Of a DNA stretch of 64,000 nucleotides, positions 7,605-46,195 are shown piece after piece. Position 1 is the stretch's first letter. The number at the start of each line of letters is the position of its first letter. A program made the translations under genes and the position numbers. The notes under the pieces were generated by a model. The model saw only the letters and a program-made list of their open reading frames with translations. It did no database searches and was not told the DNA's origin. The DNA is from Acidimicrobiia bacterium (GTDB lineage: Bacteria; Actinomycetota; Acidimicrobiia; Acidimicrobiales; JANYDT01): the NCBI GenBank assembly GCA_031418035.1, contig JANOWU010000037.1:873-64872 (forward strand), written 5' to 3'.

Positions 7605-8708
7605 GTGCCCGAGAACGACACCCGCACCGACACACACGACACACACGACACACACGACCCGCGCACCAACACCAACAACGGCACCGACACCGACACCGCC
7701 GTTGCACCGGCGGGCAGTCGGGCCCGACCGACAATCCTCATCGATTGCGACCCCGGCCATGACGATGTCATGGCGATCGGGCTGGCGGCGCAGTACTGCG
7801 ACATCGTCGGCATCACCAGCGTCGGGGGCAACTCGACGCTGGTGAACACCACCCGAAACGCGTTGATCGCAGCGGACCTTTTCGAACTTCACCACGTGCC
7901 CGTGCACGCCGGTGCCGCCAAACCCCTGAGCGCGATCATCCAACCGCATCCCACCGAAGCCCACGGGTCGAGCGGCCTCGACGGTCCGGTCCTTCCGACG
8001 CCGTCGCGCGGCGTGACCAGTGACGATGCGGTCGGCTTCATCATCCAACAAGCGCGAGCCGTCGATGATCTTTGGCTCGTAGCCCTCGGCCCGCTCACCA
8101 ACGTTGCCCTTGCGTTGCGTCACGCCCCCGACATCGTCGATCGCCTCGCCGGCATCTCGCTCATGGGTGGATCGCTCACCGCCGGCAACAGCACCGCGGC
8201 CGCCGAGTTCAATATCTGGTTCGACGCCGACGCCGCAGCCGAGGTCTACGACACTGCTGCGCGTTCCCCGCAACTACACATCCGCATGTGCGGTCTCGAC
8301 CTCACCGCGCAGGTTGGCGTCGATGCCTCATTCGTCGACGCGCTGGCCGAACCGAACACGACCGCAACCAACTTCTGTTTCGAACTCATGACGTTCTACC
8401 GCAAGACGTCGCTTCGCTTCGCCCGGGTCGACGCCGTTGCGGAGCCCGCCCGCGCCGCAGCCCTGCGTGCGCCCCTGTTCGATCCGTGCGCCGTGCTCGC
8501 CGTCACCCACCCCGAACTGTTTGCGATACGTCGCCGCCATGTGGTCGTCGAGACCCGCGGGCAATACACCCGTGGCATGACCCTCGCGGACCTGCGACCC
8601 TGGGCCGATCCGTCCAACGCAAACGTCACCGTCGTCGAAACCGCCGACCCGTCCTGTGTTGCGGTCATTCTCGACGCAATCACCAAACCGGTCAGGCGAC
8701 GGTCCTAA
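7605..8708 (+). CDS. Nucleoside hydrolase (inosine/uridine-preferring, IUNH family) with a low-complexity N-terminal extension
   Basis: Contains the IUNH fingerprint ILIDCDPGHDDVMAI. The only in-frame start upstream of that motif is GTG at 7605, giving a T/D/H/N-rich leader of about 40 aa. Confidence 0.85.
   Translation: MPENDTRTDTHDTHDTHDPRTNTNNGTDTDTAVAPAGSRARPTILIDCDPGHDDVMAIGLAAQYCDIVGITSVGGNSTLVNTTRNALIAADLFELHHVPVHAGAAKPLSAIIQPHPTEAHGSSGLDGPVLPTPSRGVTSDDAVGFIIQQARAVDDLWLVALGPLTNVALALRHAPDIVDRLAGISLMGGSLTAGNSTAAAEFNIWFDADAAAEVYDTAARSPQLHIRMCGLDLTAQVGVDASFVDALAEPNTTATNFCFELMTFYRKTSLRFARVDAVAEPARAAALRAPLFDPCAVLAVTHPELFAIRRRHVVVETRGQYTRGMTLADLRPWADPSNANVTVVETADPSCVAVILDAITKPVRRRS
7632..7658 (+). 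repeat. In-frame 9-bp tandem repeat (ACACACGAC)x3 encoding THD-THD-THD
   Basis: Read directly. It is embedded in wider CA/AC-rich low complexity at about 7620-7705, inside the 5' end of the nucleoside hydrolase ORF. Confidence 0.9.
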
Positions 8709-8865
8709 TCCCGACTCGACCGATTTTGAAGGCGGGCGGAAGTCGCCTGAACACGTCAACTGATCGGTTGGAAAGAATCAACCCGAATTCGTCGCGCTAG
8801 TCTCCTCTCCACCTACGGGATCGAATCACCTGGTTCGTCTCGCAAGCCCACCACCAGGAGGATGT

Positions 8866-9927
8866 ATGAAAGCAACCCGGAAGGCTCTCGCCACGCTGGC
8901 GTTCGCCACCGCGATCGCCGTGGCATTTAGCCCCGTCGCCGACGCAGCAAAGAAGACCACCAAGAAGAAGACCACCGCCAAGAAGGCCGCCACCCAGTCG
9001 GTTGGCCTCCTGTTCGACATCACGGGTCGTGGCGACAAGTCGTTCAACGACGCCGCCGCTGCCGGTTTCGACAAGGCCAAGGCTGAGTTCTCAAAGGCGA
9101 AGTTCACCGAGTCAGCGCCCACTGGCGACGCTGACCGACCAGAGCGTGTGAAGACCCTTATCTCGCAGAAGACCGGCATCATCGTGTGCGTAGGCTTCCT
9201 GTGGACCAAGGACTGCGGCGCCGCTGCCAAGGCCAACCCCACAACGGCGTTCGCCATCATCGACGACGTCATCGATTCGCCGAACGCCGTCTCGCTGTTG
9301 TTCTCCGAAGAGCAGGGTAGCTACCTCGTGGGCTACGCCGCTGGTCTCAAGTCCAAGTCGGGCAAGGTTGGCTTCATCGGTGGCGTCCGCACCGACGGTA
9401 TCGGCAAGTTCGAAGCTGGCTTCGCCGCTGGCGCGAAGGCTGCCAACCCGAAGGTGACCGTTGAGTCGAAGTACGCAACCGAGCCGCCGGACTTCTCGGG
9501 CTTCAACGACCCGGCCAAGGGCAAGACCATTGCCAAGGCCATGTTCGAAAGCGGCATCGACGTCGTGTACCACGCTGCTGGTGGAACCGGCGCTGGCCTC
9601 TTCGCCGCCGCCAAGGAATCGGGCAAAAAGCCGGGAGAACTCTGGACGATCGGCGTCGACTCAGACCAGTACAACTCGGTCAAGCCGGAGAACGGTCAGG
9701 AGTTCATCCTCACCTCGATGCTCAAGCGTGTCGACGTTGCGACCTACGAGGCAATCAAGGCCTACGCCGCCGGTAAGCCGTTGACCGGAAAGCAGCAGTT
9801 CGACCTCAAGCGTGACGGCGTTGGCTATGCAACGTCCAACGCAGCGATCAACGACATCAAGGACAAACTCGAAGCGGTCAAGGCCGACATCGTGGCCGGC
9901 AAGATCGTCGTTCCGACCAAGCCGTAA
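8866..9927 (+). CDS. BMP-family ABC transporter substrate-binding protein (nucleoside-binding, PnrA/Med-like)
   Basis: Has a signal peptide. GLLFDITGRGDKSFNDAA... and the later GFIGG...F..GF..G pattern are typical of the basic-membrane-protein family. The gene is followed by matching ABC components. Confidence 0.85.
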   Translation: MKATRKALATLAFATAIAVAFSPVADAAKKTTKKKTTAKKAATQSVGLLFDITGRGDKSFNDAAAAGFDKAKAEFSKAKFTESAPTGDADRPERVKTLISQKTGIIVCVGFLWTKDCGAAAKANPTTAFAIIDDVIDSPNAVSLLFSEEQGSYLVGYAAGLKSKSGKVGFIGGVRTDGIGKFEAGFAAGAKAANPKVTVESKYATEPPDFSGFNDPAKGKTIAKAMFESGIDVVYHAAGGTGAGLFAAAKESGKKPGELWTIGVDSDQYNSVKPENGQEFILTSMLKRVDVATYEAIKAYAAGKPLTGKQQFDLKRDGVGYATSNAAINDIKDKLEAVKADIVAGKIVVPTKP

Positions 9928-9984
9928 GGCAAAAGCAACGAACAAACCCTTCGACACGGATGAACTCCGTGTTGCTTCACTCCG

Positions 9985-10037: not shown

Positions 10038-11588
10038 GTGTCTCGCCTCGATGTGCAATCTGCGCCAACGGCGATCGAACTTCGTGGCATCGTAAAGCGC
10101 TTTCCAGGTGTAGTTGCCAACAATGGCGTGAACCTCACGGTCCGACACGGCACCATTCACGCGATCATCGGTGAGAACGGTGCCGGAAAATCGACGCTCA
10201 TGAAAACGCTCTACGGAGCCCACCAGCCCGATGAGGGCACCATCAAGGTGAATGGCGTAGAGCAACGGTTCAGGTCCCCGCGTGATGCCATCGCCGCCGG
10301 CATCGGCATGGTCTTCCAGCATTTCATGCTTGCCGACAATCTCACCGTGTGGGAGAACGTAGTGCTGGGCGACGAACCGGGTTCCGGTCTGAAACTGAAC
10401 CGCAAGGCCGCCCGCACAAAGATACGTGAACTTAGTGATCGTTACGGTCTTCGCGTCGACGCCGATGCCGTGATCGGAGACATGGGCGTCGGGGATCGCC
10501 AACGAGTAGAGATTCTCAAAGTGCTCTATCGCGGTGCCACGCTGATCATCTTGGATGAACCGACGGCCGTACTCGTCCCCCAGGAAGTCCAGGAACTGTT
10601 CAAGTCCCTCCGCGAGCTCGTGGCGAACGGAACCACCGTGTTGTTCATCTCGCACAAGCTCGACGAAGTCCTCTCCGTCGCCGACTCGATCACCGTGATC
10701 CGGGCGGGCAAAACCGTGGCCGAGGTCGATGACCCCACGACCGTTACCGCCTCGGATCTCGCCGAACTCATGGTCGGCAGCGAGCTCCCCTCGCCGGCCA
10801 CTACGGACTCCACGGTGCGTCCTGAGGAGGCGCTGGTGTTGTCCGGGTTGACCCTTCGTCGCGGCAATCTGGCCGTGCTCGACGACATCAGCATCCGGGT
10901 CCGCAAAGGCGAGATCGTCGGCATCGCCGGCGTCGAGGGCAATGGTCAGACCGAGCTCCTCGAATGCGTACTGGGTACCGAGAGTTTCGACACCGGTCGA
11001 ATCGAACTCGGTGGGCAGGACATGAGCGGGGTGAGCACCCGGACGCGCCGCGAGCAGGGGCTCGGGTACATTCCCGAGGATCGCCACCACGACGGTGTCA
11101 TGCTCAGCGCGCCGCTCTGGGAGAACGTTGCGCTCGGCCATCAAACGATGGCACCAGCCGCACGCGGTCCATGGATCGACCGTGAATCATTACGTACACA
11201 TACTGAATCCGTGATCGAGCAGTTCGACGTCCGCACACCCAGTGCCGACGTGGCGTGTTACGCCCTTTCCGGCGGCAATCAACAAAAGCTCATCGTCGGT
11301 CGCGAGATGCTCTCGAAGCCGAAGGTTCTCATCGCCGCCCACCCGACACGAGGCATCGACGTTGGTGCTCAAGCTGCGGTGTGGCAATCGCTTCGCGTCG
11401 CCCGCTCCGAGGGTCTCGGCGTTCTCCTTGTTTCGGCTGACCTTGACGAACTCATCGGACTTTCCGACACCCTGCTGGTCATCTTGCGCGGAAGGATCGT
11501 CGCCCAACTCGATCCGGCGACGGTCACGCCCATCGAACTCGGTTCGTACATGACCGGCGCGAAGAGCACCGAAGCGAAGGCCTCATGA
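10038..11588 (+). CDS. ABC transporter ATP-binding protein with two fused ATPase domains (nucleoside/sugar type)
   Basis: Walker A GENGAGKST, signature LSGGNQQK, and Walker B LLVSADLDE in the second half. I chose the GTG start at 10038 (alternative 10053), downstream of the hairpin. Confidence 0.85.
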   Translation: MSRLDVQSAPTAIELRGIVKRFPGVVANNGVNLTVRHGTIHAIIGENGAGKSTLMKTLYGAHQPDEGTIKVNGVEQRFRSPRDAIAAGIGMVFQHFMLADNLTVWENVVLGDEPGSGLKLNRKAARTKIRELSDRYGLRVDADAVIGDMGVGDRQRVEILKVLYRGATLIILDEPTAVLVPQEVQELFKSLRELVANGTTVLFISHKLDEVLSVADSITVIRAGKTVAEVDDPTTVTASDLAELMVGSELPSPATTDSTVRPEEALVLSGLTLRRGNLAVLDDISIRVRKGEIVGIAGVEGNGQTELLECVLGTESFDTGRIELGGQDMSGVSTRTRREQGLGYIPEDRHHDGVMLSAPLWENVALGHQTMAPAARGPWIDRESLRTHTESVIEQFDVRTPSADVACYALSGGNQQKLIVGREMLSKPKVLIAAHPTRGIDVGAQAAVWQSLRVARSEGLGVLLVSADLDELIGLSDTLLVILRGRIVAQLDPATVTPIELGSYMTGAKSTEAKAS

Positions 11589-12706
11589 AGCCTGTGCAGA
11601 TCTGGCGAGCCATGAGCGCCCCGCTCATGGCGTTGGCACTTTCCCTCATCGTGGCGACGTTCGCCCTCCTGGTTGCGGGCCACAACCCGTTCAATGCGCT
11701 GTCGTCCATGTGGGGAAATCTGAATGGCACCGACGAACTCGTCACCGTCGTGAACTACGCATCTCGGTACTACGTCATGGGGGCCGCCGTCGCCATCGGT
11801 TTCAAGATGAATCTGTTCAACATCGGCGCGAACGGTCAGTATCAGGTTGCTGCGCTCTTCGCCGGTGCAGTCGGTGGATGGTTGCGGCTCCCGGGGCCGA
11901 TCAACATCGCGCTGATCATTCTCGTTGCGATGATCGCCGGTGGTGCGTGGGCCTTCATTCCGGGCGTCCTCAACGTCACGCGGAACGTGAACATCGTTGT
12001 GGCCACGATCATGATGAACGGTATCGGTGCTGGGTTGATCGGCTACCTCCTTCGGACCAAATTCCGAGACAATTCGGACTTCAACACGGCTCACACGCTG
12101 CCGTTGCCACCAGAAAGCCGTATGCCCCATCTCAACCGTTTACTACGCGCGCTTGGTTTTCACCTTCCCGATCAGACGTTCTTTCACAGTTTCGTGTTGA
12201 TCGCCATGGTGATCGGTGTCGCGTTCTACGTGCTCATCTATCGCACCCGGTTTGGCTTCGACCTTCGTTCATCGGGTCTGAATGCCGCGGCGGCACGCTC
12301 AAGTGGTGTGGACCCCAAACGGATGGTGCTCACGACGATGACCATTTCGGGCGCAGTGGCCGGCCTCGCCGGCATGTCGCTCCTCCTCGCCGACCAATAC
12401 GAGTACGGGGATCGCTTCCCCACGTTGCTCGGCTTCACCGGCATCGCGGTCGCCCTGCTCGGTCGGAACTCGCCGGGTGGCATTGTCTTCTCCGCACTGG
12501 TGCTCGCGGCCATCGAGCAAGGAGCCCGTGGCCTGTCCGGGGTGGGCATTCCACAAGAGATCGGACAGATCCTCCAGGGGACGCTCCTCGTGAGTGCCGT
12601 GATCGCCTACGAAGTCGCCCGTCGGCGCAACCAGGCGGCGACGATTCGCGAGGCGGCCCTACGAACGGCGTCGGCTCAGGTCGTGGCACCGATGGGCGCA
12701 TCGTGA
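11585..12706 (+). CDS. ABC transporter permease (BMP/nucleoside system)
   Basis: 373 aa polytopic hydrophobic protein. Its ATGA-type overlap with the ATPase stop suggests operon coupling. Confidence 0.85.
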   Translation: MKPVQIWRAMSAPLMALALSLIVATFALLVAGHNPFNALSSMWGNLNGTDELVTVVNYASRYYVMGAAVAIGFKMNLFNIGANGQYQVAALFAGAVGGWLRLPGPINIALIILVAMIAGGAWAFIPGVLNVTRNVNIVVATIMMNGIGAGLIGYLLRTKFRDNSDFNTAHTLPLPPESRMPHLNRLLRALGFHLPDQTFFHSFVLIAMVIGVAFYVLIYRTRFGFDLRSSGLNAAAARSSGVDPKRMVLTTMTISGAVAGLAGMSLLLADQYEYGDRFPTLLGFTGIAVALLGRNSPGGIVFSALVLAAIEQGARGLSGVGIPQEIGQILQGTLLVSAVIAYEVARRRNQAATIREAALRTASAQVVAPMGAS

Positions 12707-14013
12707 GTGCCCTCACGGCCTCGCCACCCTCGCCGGTGAAGTCCCGATCGCCGTGGGGTATGGCAACACGTTCGCCGGCGATGACCGGGCTCGCCCTGTC
12801 CGCAGTCACGATGCTGCTGCTCTCCTCGGCGCGCGTCTTGGGCGATGCTCCCGGTTTGACCGGCAGTGGCGCATTTGGTGGCGCCCTCGGCTTGGCCGTT
12901 CCCGTTGCGCTGGCCGGTCTCGGTGGGCTCGTTGCCGAGCGCGTCGGAATCATCAACATCGGACTCCAGGGCATGCTTGTTCTGGGCACATGGGGTGCCG
13001 GCTTTTTCGGCTGGAAGTTCGGGCCGTGGGGGGCATTGCTGGGCGGGGCGTTCATGGGAGCCCTCGGCGGACTCCTCCACGCCGTCACCACGATCACCTT
13101 CGGTGTCGAGCAGGCCGTCTCCGGCGTCGCCATCAACCTGCTCGCCCCTGGTGTCGCCCGCTTCCTGTCCAGCGTGCTGTTCAACACCGGTTCCGGCCTC
13201 GCCGATGGCGGTTCGCTGACCGACTCACCTCCCGTCGGCAACCTCGGAAAGTTCACGATGCCGTTCCTCTCCGGTGGCCGCCTGGGGAGTTGGCGAACGC
13301 CCGACCCACTCGGTTGGCTGGAGAAACGCAAGTGGTTCTTCATAGGTGACTGCGCCTCGCTGCTTCGCGGCATCACGCGCGATCTGGCGATCGAGACGAT
13401 CCTCTGCCTCGCCCTGTTTCCCATTGCGACCTATGTGCTGTGGCGCACCCCACTCGGTTTGCGCCTCCGCAGTTCCGGCGAGAAGCCCAGTGCTGCGGAG
13501 TCCCTCGGTGTCAACGTCATTCGCCTTCGCTACGGTGCCGTGATCGTCTCGGGCGCGCTGGCAGGCCTCGGCGGTGCGTGGCTGGTCACGAACGTCGGCA
13601 AGTACCAGCAGGGGCAGGAGGGACTGCGCGGCTTTCTTGGTCTCGCCGCCGTGATCTTCGGCAACTGGAAGCCCGCGGGAGTATTTGCCGGAGCCCTTCT
13701 CTTTCAATTCACGGAATCGGTTCGTCTGCAGATCGGCGATGAACCGGCGCGAGCCTTTGTTCTGGCGCTCGGTTTCGGCCTCGCCGTCACGGCACTGTGG
13801 CAATTCAGCAAGCGGGCAACGCTGGCCGGATCCGTACTTGTACTTACGACTGCCGGGACCATCGGCTACTTCTTCATCACCAATCGGGTCGACGACAAGC
13901 TGGCATCGACGTTCCCGTACATCATCACCCTCCTGGTGCTGTTGTTCTCGTCGGATCGTTTGAGACCGCCTGCCGCGGCAGGCATACCGTGGTTCAAGGG
14001 TCAAAGTTCGTGA
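12703..14013 (+). CDS. ABC transporter permease (second permease of the BMP/nucleoside system)
   Basis: This is the in-frame C-terminal part of track ORF 11710..14013. A GTG at 12703 overlaps the upstream stop (GTGA). The hydrophobic sequence GIINIGLQGMLVLGTWGAGFFG is typical of this permease family. Confidence 0.8.
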   Translation: MSALTASPPSPVKSRSPWGMATRSPAMTGLALSAVTMLLLSSARVLGDAPGLTGSGAFGGALGLAVPVALAGLGGLVAERVGIINIGLQGMLVLGTWGAGFFGWKFGPWGALLGGAFMGALGGLLHAVTTITFGVEQAVSGVAINLLAPGVARFLSSVLFNTGSGLADGGSLTDSPPVGNLGKFTMPFLSGGRLGSWRTPDPLGWLEKRKWFFIGDCASLLRGITRDLAIETILCLALFPIATYVLWRTPLGLRLRSSGEKPSAAESLGVNVIRLRYGAVIVSGALAGLGGAWLVTNVGKYQQGQEGLRGFLGLAAVIFGNWKPAGVFAGALLFQFTESVRLQIGDEPARAFVLALGFGLAVTALWQFSKRATLAGSVLVLTTAGTIGYFFITNRVDDKLASTFPYIITLLVLLFSSDRLRPPAAAGIPWFKGQSS

Positions 14014-14405
14014 CGTCACCGATCGATTGGGACGCGCTGCGCCTCGCTGCTCGTGGCGCCACCGCGCACTCCTACGCCCCGTATTCGAACTTGCAGGTCG
14101 GTGTCGCTGCGTTGTTGGCCGACGGACGAGTCATTACGGGGTGCAACGTGGAGAACGCATCCTTCGGACTGACCTTCTGCGCGGAGATCACGATGATCGG
14201 GCGGCTACGCATGGAAGGCGTGTCGCCGCTCGTCGCCGTCGCCGCCGCCGATCAATTCGACCGTCAACTCACGCCGTGTGGACGCTGCCGTCAGATCCTC
14301 ATGGAACATGGAGGCCCGGACCTCATGGTCGACGGCCCGAGCGGGCCCCGCCCGATGCGTGAACTTCTCCCCGAATGGTTCGGCCCGGAGAAGCTCCCGA
14401 GCTAG
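14010..14405 (+). CDS. cdd: Cytidine deaminase
   Basis: Zinc-binding motifs CAE (FCAEITMIG) and PCGRCRQ. A GTG at 14010 overlaps the permease stop (GTGA). Confidence 0.85.
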   Translation: MTSPIDWDALRLAARGATAHSYAPYSNLQVGVAALLADGRVITGCNVENASFGLTFCAEITMIGRLRMEGVSPLVAVAAADQFDRQLTPCGRCRQILMEHGGPDLMVDGPSGPRPMRELLPEWFGPEKLPS

Positions 14406-14815
14406 CTGCTGCTGGTGTGCTCGCGGTCGAGTGTCCCGATGACGGCGTCGACCTCGATCTCGACCTTCCATGCCGGGTTCAACAGCGCGGCCACCACGAT
14501 CGTCGTGTTGGCCGGACGCACCTCGGTGAACAACTCGCCGTGGACTTTCTCAACCGCGTAGGAGTCACGAGGATCCACGAGATAGATTCTGGTCCGCACG
14601 ACGTCGGCCAGGCTTCCGCCCGCTTCCATGAGCGCCTTCTCCACAATTTCGAAACACCGACGGACCTGCACCACCGGATCGGGGTTGACCTTGCCGTCGG
14701 GCCAGTTTGGCGTCGTGCCCGAGACGAACACCAGGTGGTCGACTCGCACCGCCCGCGAATAGCCAAGGATCAATTCATAGGGCAATCCGGACGAAATGTG
14801 CTGACGCATGGTCAT
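14402..14815 (-). CDS. RidA/YjgF/TdcF family protein
   Basis: 137 aa with a pattern typical of the YjgF family: VFVSGTTP...VRTRIYLVD...PANTTIVVAAL...VEIEVDAV. Confidence 0.8.
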   Translation of the reverse strand: MTMRQHISSGLPYELILGYSRAVRVDHLVFVSGTTPNWPDGKVNPDPVVQVRRCFEIVEKALMEAGGSLADVVRTRIYLVDPRDSYAVEKVHGELFTEVRPANTTIVVAALLNPAWKVEIEVDAVIGTLDREHTSSS

Positions 14816-33790: not shown

Positions 33791-34165
33791 TTAGGACCCC
33801 GATGTACGGTCGGTGCGAGCTCGACCGCCGCGACGCGAGCCGCCGCGCACTCGCACGACCAGCTCGGTGACGCTCTGGTGACCCGTCGCCTCGTTCACTC
33901 GGGCGACGAGATCGTCGTGCAAGAACCGCAGTTGCGTGGCCCACGCTGGTTCGTCGACCTCGACGGTGAGGATCGAATCTCGCAGCCCGATCGGCTGCAC
34001 GTGATCGCACAGCGGACTCCCGACGACGGCGTTCCAATTCGCAAAGACGGCCGTCAACACGTTGGGCTTGGCCAGTCCGAGGCGTTTGGTCACATCGGGG
34101 AGCGAATCGCCGATCAGACGCGGGTCTCGAGCGCCGGGCTCCTGTCGGAGAGGTTTCCACACCAT
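33791..34165 (-). CDS. DUF721 (DciA-like) protein
   Basis: 124 aa in the conserved recF-gyrB position, with W..vVG..l..h..P..l....L.V.v....WA..Lr-type sequence (ANWNAVVGSPLCDHVQPIGLRDSILTVEVDEPAWATQLRF). Confidence 0.8.
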   Translation of the reverse strand: MVWKPLRQEPGARDPRLIGDSLPDVTKRLGLAKPNVLTAVFANWNAVVGSPLCDHVQPIGLRDSILTVEVDEPAWATQLRFLHDDLVARVNEATGHQSVTELVVRVRGGSRRGGRARTDRTSGS

Positions 34166-34174
34166 TGGCGATAC

Positions 34175-35377
34175 CTACAATTCACTTTCATGCAATTTCG
34201 CGTTAGGGAACGCGATCTCATCCACAAATTCCCCAGGTTTGTCCACAGCCTGATTCGTCCGGTTTGCCCCATCGGCGTGGGTCCAGCGTCGAACCGCAGA
34301 ACCCACCCCGTCGTGTTCGCCCCGTTCCACGACCACCCGCGATTCCACCGACGCAGACGACGGTACGGCGCCCGCCGTCGCGAGAAGCGTTTGTCCGGGA
34401 GGCAGACTTCGTATCAGCGCATCGCTGCGGAGCGGATCGAGCTCGGAGAAGACATCGTCGAGGAGAAGAATCGGCGCCGCCTCCAGGCGCTCGGTGAGGA
34501 GCCGATGACCGGCCAACTGCAGGGCCAATGCGAGTGTTCGCTGTTCCCCCTGCGAGGCGTGTGTACGCGACGGTCGCGAGCCGATGCGGACCTCGATCTC
34601 GTCACGATGTGGTCCCACCAGCGAAAGACCCCGACGGACATCGTCGGAACGGCCCGTCCGAAGCGCTTCGGCGAGGGGTCCATCGAAGGAACACCGATAG
34701 GTGAGCGAAACCGATGAGGAAACATCAGCGATGTCGTCGTAGGCCGTCTGCATGTGCGGGGCCAGATCATCGAGGAGTTCGGTCCGGGCCTTCACCACCG
34801 CAGCGCCGACGTCGGCCAGCTTCTCGTCCCACACATCGAGGGTGAACCCAATCTCGGCGGTCAGTCGACCGCCTGATTGCTTGAGCAGGGCATTTCGCTG
34901 ACGCAGGATCTTGTCGAGGTCAGCGAGTAACGCTGCGTTGCGGGGATGACTCGCCTCGAGCAAGCGATCCAGTACCGCTCGGCGTTCGCCCGGGCCCCCT
35001 TTGATAATGACGAGATCGTCGGGGGAGAACACCGTGACGGTCAAACCGGCGCGTCGATCCTCACCTGAACGCACAGGCTGTTTGTTGAGGAGCATCCTCG
35101 AACGACCAGCCACGACGAGCTCGGCCTCGAGCAGGAGGTTCCGGTCAGCCGAGACGGCATCGCAGCGCACAAACCCCCGGTCGGCCCCGAGGCGGACCAA
35201 CGCTTCGGTCGGCGCCCCTCGAAAGGAACGACCCGACGAAAGATACGACACCGCCTCCAGCAGATTGGTTTTCCCGGCGCCGTTGTGGCCCGTGATGACG
35301 GTCAGTCCTGGACCAAAGTCGACGCCGACGTCGGCGTAGCTTCGAAAATCATGAAGCTGAAGCCGACGGACGAACAC
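34175..35377 (-). CDS. recF: DNA replication/repair protein RecF
   Basis: VFVRRLQLHDFRSYADV...GHNGAGKTNLLEAV (Walker A) and a C-terminal LLLDDVFSELD. I chose the GTG start at 35377, which is 12 nt after the dnaN stop. Confidence 0.9.
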   Translation of the reverse strand: MFVRRLQLHDFRSYADVGVDFGPGLTVITGHNGAGKTNLLEAVSYLSSGRSFRGAPTEALVRLGADRGFVRCDAVSADRNLLLEAELVVAGRSRMLLNKQPVRSGEDRRAGLTVTVFSPDDLVIIKGGPGERRAVLDRLLEASHPRNAALLADLDKILRQRNALLKQSGGRLTAEIGFTLDVWDEKLADVGAAVVKARTELLDDLAPHMQTAYDDIADVSSSVSLTYRCSFDGPLAEALRTGRSDDVRRGLSLVGPHRDEIEVRIGSRPSRTHASQGEQRTLALALQLAGHRLLTERLEAAPILLLDDVFSELDPLRSDALIRSLPPGQTLLATAGAVPSSASVESRVVVERGEHDGVGSAVRRWTHADGANRTNQAVDKPGEFVDEIAFPNAKLHESEL

Positions 35378-36477: not shown

Positions 36478-36841
36478 AGTGGCCTCACAGTAGGCGATGG
36501 GTATGACAGGTGTGACCGAAGATGGTCCGAATCAGGTTTGAGTTTCACTGAGCAGTACATAAGTAATGAAGAGAGAAAAAAGGTAACTGTTCTTGTAGGT
36601 GCTGTGGATTGTGGAGAACGCGCGATTGTCCTGGCCAGAGGGCCTCTCGAAGCGCGCGGTCGATCCACAGAGTCAGCACGTCGATTCGGGAGGTCAGATG
36701 TCGCTGTGGATGACGCAAAACTTACCCACAGGAAGGGGTGCTTATCCACCGTGTTATCCACGGTCGGAACCGTGAGGTTTGTGGGGGTTGTGCAAAATGA
36801 TGACCGGAAAGTTTTCCGGAAAAAGGTCGGTGACGCCACGA
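36478..36841. other. Putative oriC (dnaA-dnaN intergenic): DnaA-box cluster plus AT-rich element
   Basis: DnaA-box-like 8-9-mers read directly: TGTGGATT 36603-36610, TGTGGAGA 36610-36617, GATCCACA 36662-36669, TGTGGATGA 36705-36713, TTACCCACA 36722-36730, TTATCCACC 36742-36750, TTATCCACG 36754-36762. An AT-rich stretch lies at 36541-36597 (agtttcactgagcagtacataagtaatgaagagagaaaaaaggtaactgttcttg). Confidence 0.8.
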
Positions 36842-38265: not shown

Positions 38266-38429
38266 CGTTTATTGCCGATTTTCGACATTCAAAAGTTGTC
38301 CACCGAGATCTCCACAGGTGTGGAAACCGTAAGAACGCGTATCACCCAATCGAGGTGGTGGCCGATCAATACTGCGTCTGACCTGCACCGTCTCGTCCGG
38401 GCCGACTACCGTAGCACCAGTTTTCCACA
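38266..38429. promoter_or_regulatory. DnaA boxes and AT-rich stretch upstream of dnaA (dnaA promoter/autoregulation or second oriC half)
   Basis: TTGTCCACC 38296-38304; inverted pair TCTCCACA 38309-38316 and TGTGGAAA 38319-38326; TTTTCCACA 38421-38429; AT-rich cgtttattgccgattttcgacattcaaaag at 38266-38295. Confidence 0.65.
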
Positions 38430-41394: not shown

Positions 41395-42036
41395 TTGACC
41401 GAGTCATTGTCTGACGAGCCCCTTCTCGCGTGCCTGGAACGCGCACGCGAGTTGGGGTACCTCGGTCCTGGACCGATTGCGCGACACATCGAACATGCGA
41501 TGGGGTTTGCCGAAATCGTGGAGCGGCACACGCCGCATGTGATCCACGACGCAGTGCGGGTGGTTGATCTCGGTTCCGGCGGTGGTGTGCCCGGGCTGGT
41601 CTTGTTGCGGCGTTGGCCGCTCTCGCGCTGGTTGTTCTTGGACACCAACCAGCGGCGCATGGCAACGCTGCGCGAAGCTCTCGTCGAACTCGGCGAGGAC
41701 GGACGCGCCGAGGTGGTGTGTGGACGTGCCGAGGAGGAGTCAGGTCAACCCGGTCGACGTGGCTCCTTCGACATTGTCGTCGCACGCGGGTTCGGACCTC
41801 CCGCCGTTACCGCGGAATGCGCCGCTCCCCTCCTGGTTGTCGACGGAAGTCTCGTGGTGAGCGAACCGCCCGAGGACCGTCCCCGATGGGACGCTCCTGG
41901 TTTGGCCACGCTTGGTCTATCCGGCGATGTGGGAGTTGCGGCGGGATTTCGGTTCTTCGTCGCGACCCAGGTTTCTCCGTGTCCGGCCCGCTTTCCGCGG
42001 CGCACCGGTATTCCCGCGAAGCGCCCACTCTTTTAG
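41395..42036 (+). CDS. rsmG: 16S rRNA (guanine527-N7)-methyltransferase RsmG (GidB)
   Basis: VVDLGSGGGVPGLVL (SAM motif), VVARGF, and the position after jag. The start is uncertain: TTG at 41395 or 41407. Confidence 0.8.
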   Translation: MTESLSDEPLLACLERARELGYLGPGPIARHIEHAMGFAEIVERHTPHVIHDAVRVVDLGSGGGVPGLVLLRRWPLSRWLFLDTNQRRMATLREALVELGEDGRAEVVCGRAEEESGQPGRRGSFDIVVARGFGPPAVTAECAAPLLVVDGSLVVSEPPEDRPRWDAPGLATLGLSGDVGVAAGFRFFVATQVSPCPARFPRRTGIPAKRPLF

Positions 42037-42826
42037 ACATTCATCCTTCGAGACGCTCCCGCAACGAGTCGCCCGAGATCTCCGGCAGGTGCGACTCGGG
42101 TCGGGACCCCGGGTCAGGACACCGGTCCCCTGCGTCATGATGAGACACGATGACGTTTTAGCGGCGAGCCTCGTCGGCGGCGCCGACGGGCGTGTGACCG
42201 GACCCTGGGGATCCGCTCCACGAACCGTCGCGATTGCAATGCGGTCCGCCGCCTCAGTGTCTCGCGCCGACCGCACTTGTGGTGCGCCGAAGGGGTGGCG
42301 TTGAGCGTCGGCGTGGATGCGTGGTCGACCCGACGCCTGACCCGACGCGGCGACTCCTGGCAAGTGGTCCGGCGCGATACGGTGAAACACCCTGCGGTTC
42401 GCAATCGGTTCCATACGTGACGAACAGCGCTGGATCGAAACCGATCGTCGACGACGTGCTCCTTCTTCGAACACGTGGGTGGCAAGCTCGGTGGTCGGTG
42501 GCGTTCCGCTGGTGTTCTCCGATCGAGACGTGCACACCTGGCTCGAACAAGGGCTACGCAGTGAGAACTCGACGGGAGGTTCGGCCAAGCTTGACGGAAG
42601 CGGCCCGACGCCTCGTTGCCACTGCATCTCGCTGACAAGTGTACGTCCGCCGACTCGCTCCGACTTCGACCTTCGCCACCAGACCGAACGCCCGCCCAAC
42701 GGATCACCGCAAACTCCGGCGTCTCCCGGCGAGGTAGGGGCGGCGTCAGTTTTCACGTACATCGAGACGTGAATCGCACGACCTTCGACGATCCCTGCCG
42801 AGCCGACCGAGCCTTGAGGGCGTCGG

Positions 42827-42842
42827 TATTTCACGTGAAACA
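42827..42842. promoter_or_regulatory. parS site (TATTTCACGTGAAACA, 1 mismatch to TGTTTCACGTGAAACA)
   Basis: Read directly. Palindromic core TTTCACGTGAAA. Confidence 0.8.
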
Positions 42843-42968
42843 TCGGACGTGGATTGTGCCGTTGGCGACGCCCCGTCGTCCAGCTGGCGATGCCAAAGTG
42901 TTCGCGTGAAGTATCGGGAGCGAATAGCACCGACTACGACCTTTCTTCAGTGGGCAGTGCGGAGGCGA

Positions 42969-42984
42969 TGTTTCACGTGAAACA
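42969..42984. promoter_or_regulatory. parS site (perfect TGTTTCACGTGAAACA)
   Basis: Read directly. Confidence 0.9.
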
Positions 42985-43109
42985 TCAGTCGTGGATTGTG
43001 CCGATGGCGACGCCCCCTCCGTCTAGTTGACGGGATGCGCAGTGCTTCCGTGAACATCAGAGTGGATAGCACCGACTACGACTGTCCTTCAGCGGGCACG
43101 TGGGCGGGC

Positions 43110-43125
43110 AGTTTCACGTGAAACA
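43110..43125. promoter_or_regulatory. parS site (AGTTTCACGTGAAACA, 1 mismatch)
   Basis: Read directly. Confidence 0.85.
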
Positions 43126-43191
43126 TCAAGACATGAACCGCAACCTTCGCGCATCTCCTCCGAGGCTTCCGAGACTTTGGGCGGGCGTCGG

Positions 43192-43207
43192 TGCTTCACG
43201 TGAAACG
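43192..43207. promoter_or_regulatory. parS site (TGCTTCACGTGAAACG, 2 mismatches)
   Basis: Read directly. Confidence 0.7.
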
Positions 43208-43893
43208 CATTGCGCGCAACGTACTTCAAAACAATGCGCTTACTGAGTGGAGGGCGAGTGACCTGTCACCGAAGTGTGTTGCACGGACTTGTTGCCAACA
43301 AGGAGGCAATAGGCGATATGGTCGGCCGTAGTTCGATCGTGGCCACGGGCTGAATGAAACCCTCGGCTATGACCGGGCGAGACAGTTGGTCGAGGAAAGT
43401 GAGCGAACCGGCATTTCCGTTGCGGACTTTCGGTACGCGAAGGGTACGTGGACACCGAAACGACCGAGAGGCTCACCGACCCGTCCGGCTAGTGCTGCCG
43501 GCGCGCCTGCGGGACGTAGTGTTTCCCTCGGCTGGGAGCAGCTTGGTGTTCGGACGAACGGCAGGATCTATTACATGGAGCGATGTGCTCGTAGGACCAC
43601 GTCATCGAGGTGATGGTTCGCGGAGGCGGCAGCATGTGGGCGTGGTCGGGTCTCACTCAGCTGCCGTGGGCGGCGGCAGGGAGGACTTGTTGGCTTGTCG
43701 CCCGCGAAGGTTGGCGCCACCGTGCCAGGTTGGTGCCTGAGGCGGCGGTCACTGCGCGAACCCTGGCACTGTGGTGCCAACTTCTGACGGCGACTCGTTT
43801 CGCGGCGTGATTCGCTCAGGCCTCGAACGCCGTGCGGCCGCAGGCGCGGGACCGTGCCCGCGGCATCCCATGTCGAGCTGGCGGGAAGGGCAG

Positions 43894-43909
43894 CGTTTCA
43901 CGTGAAACA
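43894..43909. promoter_or_regulatory. parS site (CGTTTCACGTGAAACA, 1 mismatch)
   Basis: Read directly. Confidence 0.85.
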
Positions 43910-44031
43910 GGCACGTGATTGCGCCGACAGCGAATCAGTTCAGTCGAGCTGGCGGGACACGCCGGTGTGAAACATCGAGGGTGAATCCCACCGACTACGA
44001 CCGTCCTCCATCGGGCACTTGGGCGGGGCAC

Positions 44032-44047
44032 TGTTTCACGTGAAACA
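44032..44047. promoter_or_regulatory. parS site (perfect TGTTTCACGTGAAACA)
   Basis: Read directly. Confidence 0.9.
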
Positions 44048-44102
44048 TCGAAAGTGAACCGCAGACCCTCACTCTTCCCACGAGCACTCGGCAAGGTGTC
44101 GA

Positions 44103-44118
44103 CGTTTCACGTGAGACA
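44103..44118. promoter_or_regulatory. parS site (CGTTTCACGTGAGACA, 2 mismatches)
   Basis: Read directly. Confidence 0.7.
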
Positions 44119-44198
44119 TCAAATGTTAAGCCCGCATCTTTGGCGCCTCATGAACCGGGCGGGACCTACCCCCACCCGGCCCATACCGGGGACGGCAA

Positions 44199-44214
44199 TG
44201 TTTCACGTGAAACA
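44199..44214. promoter_or_regulatory. parS site (perfect TGTTTCACGTGAAACA)
   Basis: Read directly. Confidence 0.9.
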
Positions 44215-44393
44215 GCCCGTGAATGGGACCACCGGCGGTCGTGCCTCTCACGCATCAGCGCATCCGAGGGAGTGCAAGGAGATCAAAAGACCTTGGTCGC
44301 GCCCTCGGGAGCGTCGAATCGGGTGATCGGCGCCTTAGGTCGGCCATCAGGCAAGAATGTTTGCGAAATGCCGAGGAGATGCACCAGCGCGAA

Positions 44394-44409
44394 TGTTTCA
44401 CGTGAAACA
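44394..44409. promoter_or_regulatory. parS site (perfect TGTTTCACGTGAAACA), 43 nt upstream of the parA start
   Basis: Read directly. It overlaps the likely parAB promoter/leader. Confidence 0.9.
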
Positions 44410-44451
44410 CTGGAGCATCCCTTCCTGGTCGAGTGACGATCACGGTCTCGT

Positions 44452-45285
44452 ATGAAGGATCCCACCGCTATGTCCGGCACAGCACCGGCGACCTCGTTCG
44501 CCCGGCCCTTTCCCAGAACTATCGCCATTGCCAACCAAAAAGGCGGTGTCGGCAAGACGACTACCGCCGTGAACCTGTCCGCAGCTCTTGCCGACCGCGG
44601 GTACCGGGTCCTGGTCGTCGATCTCGATCCGCAAGGCAACGCAACCACCGGATTGGGCGTGAACGCTCGAAATCTGGAGTTTTCGGTCTATGACGTGTTG
44701 ATGCGCGACACGCCAATGGAGGATGCCGTCGAGGCGACGTCCGTCCAGAACCTCTTCCTGGTTCCGACGACGATCGATCTGGCCGGGGCCGAGATCGAAT
44801 TGGTACCGGCCTTCAGTCGGGAACTGAAGTTGCGGCGAGCGATTGCTCGAGTGATCGATGATTTCGACTTCATCATCATCGACTGTCCGCCGTCTCTCGG
44901 CCTCCTGACGATCAACGCCCTGGCCGCGGCGTCGGAAGTCGTGGTCCCGATTCAATGCGAGTACTACGCATTGGAGGGCCTTGGCCAGCTGCTTCGCAAC
45001 GTCAACCTGGTGCAATCGAACCTGAACCAGACGTTGGAGATCAGCGCGATCATTCTCACCATGTACGACGCTCGGACGAAACTGGCCGACCAAGTCATGC
45101 ATGAAATTCGCACCCACTTCGGTGATCGAGTGTGTCGGAACATCGTTCCTCGTAGTGTGCGACTGTCGGAGGCCCCGTCGTTCGGGCAGCCGATTACGGT
45201 ATTCGACCCCACCTCACGGGGAGCAGTGGCCTACAGGGGCCTGGCAAAGGAGATAAGTGGTGGTGCGCCAAAGCGGACTGGGTAA
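44452..45285 (+). CDS. parA: Chromosome partitioning ATPase ParA (Soj)
   Basis: Deviant Walker A IAIANQKGGVGKTTTAVNL, plus LVVDLDPQGNAT. An alternative start is ATG at 44470. Confidence 0.95.
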   Translation: MKDPTAMSGTAPATSFARPFPRTIAIANQKGGVGKTTTAVNLSAALADRGYRVLVVDLDPQGNATTGLGVNARNLEFSVYDVLMRDTPMEDAVEATSVQNLFLVPTTIDLAGAEIELVPAFSRELKLRRAIARVIDDFDFIIIDCPPSLGLLTINALAAASEVVVPIQCEYYALEGLGQLLRNVNLVQSNLNQTLEISAIILTMYDARTKLADQVMHEIRTHFGDRVCRNIVPRSVRLSEAPSFGQPITVFDPTSRGAVAYRGLAKEISGGAPKRTG

Positions 45286-46195
45286 AGGATTGGGGGCATT
45301 GCTTCCGACATCGACAGAGGCACCAATTCTCGAAGGCGGGTCCACGGTCGGGCGATTGATCGAGATCAATATCGGCGACATTCGACCCAACACCTATCAG
45401 CCTCGATCGACGTTCGACGACGAGGGCATCGAAAGCCTCGCCGCGTCTATTCGCGAGTTGGGTGTGCTGCAACCCATCTTGGTTCGCTCGACCCCCGAGG
45501 GCGGATACGAACTCATCGCTGGTGAGCGGCGTTGGCGAGCGGCTCGCCGGGCCGGGCTCAGCGTCGTTCCTGCGGTCGTGAAGTCGGCCGATGACAATGC
45601 GGCGCTGGAACAGGCTTTGGTGGAGAACTTGCATCGGGCGGATCTCAATCCGCTCGAGGAGGCGGCCGCTTTTCAGCAGCTCATTGACGATTTCGGCTTC
45701 ACCCACGAGCAGGTGGCCGATCGTGTCGGCAAGAGCCGCGCCGCGGTATCGAATACCCTGCGCCTGTTCCAACTCTCCCCGTCGATCCAGCGGTTCGTGT
45801 TGGAGGGCAAACTGTCGGCCGGACACGCTCGTTCCCTTCTCGGGACGACCGATAAGGCGTTCCAGGAGGCTCTCGCTCGCCGAATCGTGCAGGAGGAGCT
45901 ATCGGTACGGGCAACCGAGGAAGCCGTGAAGTTGCGGTTGAATCCGGCCGCCGCGAGTCCCAGGTCATCTGCAGGGCCGGGAACGGGTGCGCCGACAGCG
46001 TCGAAAACAGACCGGCCCGCCGGTCTTCTCGAGCTCGAGGAAGTCCTCGCCGGTATATACGACACCCGGGTAGCCATCCAGATGGTGCCGAACAAGAGAG
46101 GTCAGCTCACGATCGAGTTTGCCGACTTGAACGATCTGGAGCGAATATTCCACATAATGACAATCGGGGCCGCCTCCGACACCGTCGAAGGCTGA
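45257..46195 (+). CDS. parB: Chromosome partitioning protein ParB (Spo0J)
   Basis: N-terminus GLGKGLGALLP, CTP-binding/arginine-patch motif GERRWRAARRAGL, and an HTH region. The GTG start at 45257 overlaps the parA end. Confidence 0.95.
   Translation: MVVRQSGLGKGLGALLPTSTEAPILEGGSTVGRLIEINIGDIRPNTYQPRSTFDDEGIESLAASIRELGVLQPILVRSTPEGGYELIAGERRWRAARRAGLSVVPAVVKSADDNAALEQALVENLHRADLNPLEEAAAFQQLIDDFGFTHEQVADRVGKSRAAVSNTLRLFQLSPSIQRFVLEGKLSAGHARSLLGTTDKAFQEALARRIVQEELSVRATEEAVKLRLNPAAASPRSSAGPGTGAPTASKTDRPAGLLELEEVLAGIYDTRVAIQMVPNKRGQLTIEFADLNDLERIFHIMTIGAASDTVEG

Follow-up and report, generated by a model that had tools for sequence, protein, structure and literature searches.

The parS array between rsmG and parA

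We analysed a 64-kb window (the whole stretch of DNA considered here), which is part of one contig of an Acidimicrobiia metagenome-assembled genome (MAG), and we describe an array of parS, the sites at which the partition protein ParB is predicted to load, in the interval between rsmG (gidB) and parA. When all 64 kb were searched for TGTTTCACGTGAAACA with at most two mismatches, nine parS were found, all of them within 42827-44409 (Table 1), against a chance expectation of 0.02 for the window in dinucleotide-preserving shuffles. The nine sites, four of them perfect, agree with the 16-bp palindromic parS consensus TGTTNCACGTGAAACA and span 1.6 kb of a single spacer, at a density of 5.7 per kb overall and about 10 per kb inside the blocks described below. 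The same scan returned zero parS at two or fewer mismatches in the rest of the window; with a relaxed threshold, the 61.4 kb outside the interval gave one match with four mismatches and ten with five, and the interval itself gave no additional site at up to five ungapped mismatches. An earlier, model-made account of this DNA (hereafter the sequence-only reading) had listed the nine sites, and its coordinates and mismatch counts proved exact.

Start-to-start spacings of the intact sites are 142, 141, 82, 702, 138, 71, 96 and 195 bp. The periodicity of about 70 bp that had been ascribed to the array was recovered for its repeat units, with decayed copies counted, but not for the intact sites, whose spacings run from 71 to 702 bp. 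A gapped edit-distance scan located decayed copies at 42746 (distance 4), 42898 (4) and 43041 (3). Because the background of such matches is high (27 at a distance of 4 or less in 61.4 kb), decayed copies were assigned by register and flanks and not by motif score alone. A further copy, at 43967, has a palindrome short by 7 nt, yet is a repeat unit by flank homology. These four are among the five decayed copies that the sequence-only reading had claimed; the fifth, at 44355, lies outside the repeat family, is unsupported and was left uncounted.

Alignment of 13 units gave a consensus of ~71 bp (...TCnAGCTGGCnnGGGnGGCAnTGTTTCACGTGAAACATCGnnnGTGAATnGCACCGnnnnCGAC...) that extends past parS, and the units all face the same way. 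Two types of unit can be told apart: A units, in which an intact parS is followed by GTGGATTGTGCCGATGGCGACGCC, and B units, which carry GTGGATAGCACCGACTACGAC. Alternating A and B units make up a 142-bp higher-order repeat, which forms the core of block 1 and which TRF detected as a 142-bp period over 42829-43128 (2.1 copies, 81% match). The two blocks have homologous units (repeat families D3, D4 and D9), and the array as a whole consists of these blocks and the isolated perfect site at 44394. Because the units share a ~71-bp flank and the 142-bp A/B order, the array arose by tandem duplication of a ~71-bp parS unit. This agrees with the origin that had been proposed for it, and A and B units recur in the sister species as well. 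Most window units also have GTGRAT about 8 nt downstream of parS; as a candidate for a second conserved motif beside parS it was rejected as a relic of duplication, the flanks of 115 sites in relatives being uninformative beyond a weak GA...TC extension.

Each of the three B units in the window has lost its parS. The lesions differ from copy to copy and include substitutions, 1-nt deletions and a 7-nt deletion (42880-43107 and 43941-44026). Since every copy bears lesions of its own, the B-type parS decayed independently. All A-type units have kept parS, and the B-type sites of the sister species are perfect (L089 12035-12343; loci from other assemblies are numbered with the prefix L). Loss of every second site looks non-random, with three cases only.

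Table 1. Features of the rsmG-parA interval and its surroundings (window coordinates; single numbers are start positions).
Feature	Position	Strand	Remarks
DnaA-box cluster	36610..36797	.	dnaA-dnaN spacer; likely oriC
Second small DnaA-box cluster	38279..38429		
rsmG (gidB)	41395..42036	+	Pfam GidB, E = 2.5e-15; 213 aa
Leader	42037..42721	.	~690 bp, no parS, no coding signal
parS block 1	42722..43207	+	seven ~71-bp units; intact 42827, 42969, 43110, 43192; decayed about 42746, 42898, 43041
Inter-block spacer	43208..43868	.	661-686 bp without parS, non-coding
Imperfect inverted repeat, hairpin- or cruciform-capable	43692..43798	.	~107 nt, 33-nt arms, inside spacer
parS block 2	43869..44214	+	intact 43894, 44032, 44103, 44199; decayed B-type about 43967
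Perfect parS	42969, 44032, 44199, 44394		0 mismatches
parS with one mismatch	42827, 43110, 43894		
parS with two mismatches	43192, 44103		
parA-proximal perfect parS	44394..44409	.	sole site position-conserved in all close relatives retrieved
Conserved 60-nt block	44410..44469	+	putative promoter and 5' UTR; nearly invariant in three-way alignment
parA	44470..45285	+	271 aa; Pfam AAA_31/CbiA/ParA
parB	45257..46195	+	ParB_N (2.7e-35), HTH_ParB (2.3e-36), ParB_C; GERRWRAA in translation

Variation among relatives and across Acidimicrobiia

Close relatives were retrieved through an RsmG protein search and contig look-ups; a metagenome scan with RsmG revealed no close relative. The sister lineage (GCA_031362515.1 and GCA_031374345.1; rsmG 93% identical in nucleotides, ParA protein identical) shares the leader and both the A and the B units with the window. 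Its B units carry perfect parS, and this establishes that the B-type copies of the window are decayed parS. Contigs of this lineage stop within the array from both sides; reading in from rsmG, six parS are seen, and reading in from parA, four, so that the total is at least ten. By this comparison the array is not unique to the window genome.

In other close relatives, four parS were found in a 1.0-kb gap (L083-85, ParA 98% identical), six in a 4-kb gap (L087, ParA 93% identical) and five in 1.5 kb (L091 and L093, rsmG 87% identical in nucleotides). ParA is thus 93-98% identical where the gaps, with 4-6 sites, are unalignable, a pattern in which the array turns over fast. Just upstream of one parS, a short run of reiterated half-sites ATGTTTCATGTTTCACGTTTCACGTTTCACGTGAAACA was observed in a relative (L091 2270-2310, L093 2255-2295, L092 3645-3685), and the run looks like slippage within a palindrome arm.

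We considered whether short-read assembly through repeats might have produced the array itself, or the number and order of its copies. Contigs end or begin inside the array in both sister assemblies and in two Logan assemblies, in some cases within a parS, and two further contigs (L086 and L088) end just after rsmG. The copies in the window, however, are diverged (81% between higher-order copies, with differing flanks) and hence assemblable; both ends of the array are continuous with conserved genes, and A and B units recur in independent assemblies. In the worst case the true array would be larger, not absent. An artefact of assembly is therefore an improbable explanation of the array, although its copy number in the window is less certain because short-read assemblies struggle there. 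Listed by locus, the breaks inside or just before the array are the ends of L089 (12343) and L090 (7130), the starts of L094, L095, L096 and L097, and the ends of L086 and L088, some of them falling within a parS. The parS array is a systematic assembly breakpoint, and its copy number in MAGs is uncertain.

The closest ParA homologues among species-representative genomes all belong to Acidimicrobiia/Acidimicrobiales MAGs (65-80% identity). For class-wide counts, parS were scored with a class-adapted consensus (TGTTYCACGTGRAACA, at most two mismatches) in 73 Acidimicrobiia loci (L002-L087) with rsmG upstream of parA. The rsmG-parA gaps, which range from 81 to 4150 bp, held 158 parS (median two per gap) as compared to six in 1.28 Mb of flanks, and at least one parS was present in the gap of 69 of the 73 loci. 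Four to eight parS were counted in 13 loci, and the nine of the window are the maximum in this survey. Adjacent sites are mostly 31-99 bp apart, the typical arrangement being a parS doublet at 31-60 bp, with a minimum start-to-start distance of 31 bp. A universal spacing rule of ~70 bp was rejected, the class spacing having its peak at 31-60 bp. Across the sequences surveyed, then, the rsmG-parA spacer is the standard and nearly exclusive position of parS in Acidimicrobiia, and array expansion is recurrent.

The sequence-only reading had called a compact array directly upstream of parAB atypical. It is unlike the mycobacterial and Corynebacterium models, but the spacer is the usual location in this class, arrays recur there, and Myxococcus xanthus offers a precedent. 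Equally dense arrays, the commonness of which in relatives had been raised as an objection, are common in the nearest relatives and not in the class overall.

One of these expansions was seen in L032, a distant member of the class (ParA 76% identical), in which eight parS of the variant TGTTCCACGTGGAACA occupy 8822-9157 of a gap at 8498-9962. The variant agrees with the M. xanthus consensus TGTTCCACGTGGAACG at 15 of 16 positions. Here too there is a tandem repeat, with a period of 140 bp (2.4 copies, 79% match) and with decayed copies lying among the intact ones. Homology of the 140-bp unit to the 142-bp unit of the window was rejected, as alignment scores were no better than those of shuffles (z about 0); on this comparison the L032 array represents an independent amplification.

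Non-coding DNA and the parA-proximal parS

A codon-usage log-odds model, trained on 18 confident window genes and run in six frames, gave at most +0.2 bits per 60 codons over 41940-44400; the values for the flanking jag, rsmG, parA and parB were +12 to +28 bits per 60 codons. Ten ORFs of the interval (60-337 aa) had zero Pfam matches at E<=1. Rfam at gathering thresholds matched only two tRNAs in the whole window, both outside the interval, and at E<=10 only two chance-level matches within it. In blastn and tblastx comparisons with 80 loci of the class, parS alone was matched, the tblastx matches being summed low-complexity noise, and blastn against 72,556 plasmids and 50,697 phages found no similarity to the interval. 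The interval 42037-44469 is non-coding. That it is free of genes had been claimed before, and the claim is upheld by the lack of a coding signal, of a Pfam or Rfam match and of a conserved gene in relatives. Unnamed ORFs of 74-244 aa, belonging to no Pfam family, have been called by gene callers over the parS spacers of relatives (L083 11112-11636; L091 1783-2987; L087 11079-12685); these calls, made in non-coding DNA that is rich in GC, are probably spurious.

The spacer between the blocks contains one strong structure. Its hairpin (43692-43798) folds with -65.5 kcal/mol (z = -5.4 on the plus strand, z = -4.5 on the minus strand), and the spacer as a whole reaches z-scores of -2.1 and -2.5. 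The hairpin is single-copy in the window, Rfam does not match it, and none of the retrieved relatives has it. It might be a cruciform or a structured transcript, or else what an inserted element has left behind. A small hairpin at 43205-43245 was discarded, its fold being no better than shuffles. The spacer (43208-43868) is unconserved in every relative retrieved. In L087 an IS30-like element (HTH_38 and rve transposase, 12787-14080) was observed between parS sites of the gap (10648-14641). Insertions into the centromere spacer are thus tolerated, and this may be how the unrelated 661 bp between the two blocks of the window came about. The leader (42037-42721) is conserved in the sister species only: with L089/L090, 42037-42186 continues an alignment of 92.7% identity and 42257-42919 aligns at 77%, and nothing in L091, L083 or L087 could be aligned to it.

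It is conceivable that a functional gene or RNA is hidden in the interval, for instance in the 661-bp spacer, where the ~100-nt hairpin is, or in the leader of 690 bp, and that parS merely flank it. The fold of the hairpin, the whole-spacer z of about -2 against shuffles and the unnamed ORFs called in the equivalent gaps of relatives speak for this reading. No frame is positive for coding, however, Pfam and Rfam have no match, neither nucleotide nor translated conservation was found in 80 class members or in close relatives, and the ORFs called in relatives, which lack a Pfam family, overlap parS. We consider such a hidden gene or RNA very unlikely.

The identities of the flanking genes given by the sequence-only reading were confirmed by Pfam (GidB, a ParA-type ATPase and ParB), and the jag product matches Jag_N/R3H. 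The 213-aa RsmG has a 100% identical protein in an NCBI-derived collection, and the rsmG stop at 42036 is at a position kept in relatives, with blastn alignments ending at 42032-42037. The start of parA had been placed at 44452, and we moved it. In a three-way alignment with close relatives, L087 has ACG where the window has ATG at 44452, and the stretch from this codon to the ATG at 44470, from which the frame is conserved, contains indels of +2 and -1 nt. The 271-aa product is a called gene in four other assemblies, and an exact look-up of the 277-aa version was negative. Because of the ACG in the relative, the frame-breaking indels and the 271-aa product called elsewhere, the comparison places the parA start at ATG 44470 and not at 44452. 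A Shine-Dalgarno-like GAAGGA (44454-44459) stands at a proper distance from it, and 60 nt separate the end of the last parS from the corrected start codon.

This last, parA-proximal parS is conserved in L083-85, L087, L091/93 and L094-97. From it onward the window is 82-92% identical to close relatives, and the rest of the gap is unalignable in L083-85, L087 and L091/L093. In these alignments purifying selection is confined to the proximal parS and the 60 nt that follow, which would fit a promoter/operator role. A ParB-dependent autoregulation of parAB through the proximal parS is plausible on this basis.

The array might be mainly an operator or insulator that silences or buffers parAB and rsmG and is dispensable for segregation, with one parS serving as the centromere. 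The proximal parS does abut the conserved region upstream of parA, an overlap of parS with promoters has been proposed in mycobacteria (PMC2346475), and Corynebacterium glutamicum grows and divides in a wild-type-like manner with a single parS (PMC7083940). Yet position is conserved at the proximal site only, and the distal blocks, 250-1600 bp from the start codon, show rapid turnover; this turnover fits a dosage of loading sites better than a precise operator geometry. We thus regard a mainly regulatory array as unlikely, and operator and segregation roles are not mutually exclusive.

A predicted origin-proximal centromere

The gene order dnaN-dnaA / rpmH-rnpA-yidC-jag-rsmG is as in annotated relatives, with gene identities assigned by synteny. 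The array lies about 4.4-6 kb from the DnaA-box clusters, its first intact parS being ~6 kb from the cluster at 36610-36797 in the dnaA-dnaN spacer, which is the likely oriC. With TTWTCCACA at one mismatch or fewer, no DnaA box was detected between 38430 and 46145, and a function of the array as oriC, DnaA-box region or iteron origin was rejected, there being no DnaA boxes inside. A third DnaA-box-like group was observed at 34153-34247 (three in 95 bp, including TTGTCCACA), downstream of dnaN near recF/DciA-like genes and at some distance from the main dnaA-dnaN cluster.

We propose that the rsmG-parA interval is an origin-proximal chromosomal centromere, that is, a non-coding array of predicted ParB loading sites, and give this a probability of roughly 0.85, because parS is present in multiple copies, adjacent to canonical parAB, near oriC and in a non-coding context. 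The sequence-only reading had likewise seen a parS array next to parAB, and the nine sites and the canonical ParA and ParB domains found with Pfam support it.

Loading of ParB-CTP clamps at parS, their sliding and ParA-driven segregation are established ParABS biology. By analogy, each 16-bp parS of the window would be recognised by ParB dimers, which would become CTP-bound clamps and slide onto the flanks. Nine loading sites close together would raise the local rate of ParB loading, so that one large partition complex would form ~6 kb from oriC, to be segregated by ParA; the complex would probably also recruit SMC. As to its origin, the sequence shows that a ~71-bp parS unit was duplicated in tandem and came to be ordered into the 142-bp A/B higher-order repeat and the two blocks, after which all three B-type copies lost parS in the lineage of the window. 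The proximal parS most likely would couple ParB occupancy to parAB transcription.

Several points weigh against the centromere interpretation as we have put it. The benefit of nine sites is unproven, since a single parS suffices in C. glutamicum (PMC7083940). Further parS may be present elsewhere in the genome, since 64 kb of it were seen. A sigma-70 consensus scan found no parA promoter, and the 661-bp spacer and the strong hairpin in it have no place in this account. Finally, the contig is derived from a MAG, related assemblies fail to resolve the region, and assembly may have collapsed some of the copies or joined them in the wrong order.

Tandem centromere sites are a known feature of plasmids. 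The sopC of the F plasmid consists of 12 direct repeats of 43 bp, each with a SopB-binding inverted repeat, and plasmid par operons are autoregulated through such centromere sites. The array resembles sopC in that it consists of tandem direct repeats with one ParB-family binding inverted repeat per unit beside a par operon. It differs in that its locus is chromosomal (flanked by dnaA, dnaN, rpmH, yidC and rsmG) with the chromosomal parS consensus, and in having longer units (71/142 bp), which have diverged and in part decayed. A plasmid-type, sopC-like centromere was rejected on account of the core chromosomal origin-region flanks and the lack of any plasmid or phage match.

The nearest chromosomal counterpart is that of M. 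xanthus, with 22 parS in 3,054 bp (24 in another count) ~4 kb upstream of parA, the consensus of which is bound by ParB in vitro (PMC3899335, PMC3778016). Both systems have the canonical 16-bp chromosomal parS in many copies, packed into a few kb of DNA that lie ahead of parAB and close to oriC, at a density of 7.2 per kb in M. xanthus as compared to 5.7 overall and about 10 within blocks in the window. The M. xanthus cluster, however, is separated from parA by ~4 kb and from ori by ~30-35 kb, whereas the window array abuts parA and is ~6 kb from DnaA boxes; moreover, the window belongs to another phylum and has fewer sites.

Among actinobacteria, C. glutamicum has ten sites (parS1-10), nine of them intergenic, spread over 35 kb at 73 kb from oriC and ParB-bound in ChIP (PMC7083940). 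It is similar to the window in having about ten parS of identical consensus near oriC on an actinobacterial chromosome, but its sites are in several intergenic regions without a tandem array, whereas the nine of the window share one spacer. Mycobacteria have two parS, one upstream of gidB and one inside parA, close to the gidB-parAB promoters, for which regulation by ParB has been proposed, and their gidB and parA overlap (PMC2346475). The jag-gidB-parA-parB neighbourhood is the same as in the window, the mycobacterial one being without an intergenic spacer. In Deinococcus radiodurans, the cisII and cisMP direct-repeat arrays upstream of parAB are located on secondary replicons and bind the cognate ParB; they consist of 18-bp iterons unrelated to canonical parS, contain DnaA boxes and act as an origin (PMC7671480). 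The window likewise has a direct-repeat array immediately upstream of parAB, but with canonical parS and without DnaA boxes in the interval.

It is tempting to view Acidimicrobiia centromeres as miniature satellites that have been amplified repeatedly and independently into ~70-bp units and ~140-bp higher-order repeats, with intact and decayed sites alternating and with turnover within a genus; we find this improbable. The period of 142 bp in the window, of 140 bp in L032 and a mean of ~145 bp in M. xanthus, together with the three B-type losses, hint at a preferred spacing of ~140 bp between active ParB loading sites, for which the physics of clamp loading or of bridging might be responsible. 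The idea is weak because there are three data points and the class spacing peaks at 31-60 bp.

Dense clusters of chromosomal parS ahead of parAB were already known, and the array of the window is an enlarged, satellite-like example of them in an unstudied class; no new mechanism is revealed by the locus. Throughout one class of actinobacteria, the centromere is restricted to one intergenic spacer, whose evolution is much faster than that of the neighbouring genes. The locus may be of use for comparative work on ParB loading and dosage, for annotation (spurious ORFs over arrays) and for quality control of assemblies (contig breaks). Close relatives with 4, 5, 6, 9 and at least 10 sites make up a natural copy-number series in which the value of extra parS can be followed.

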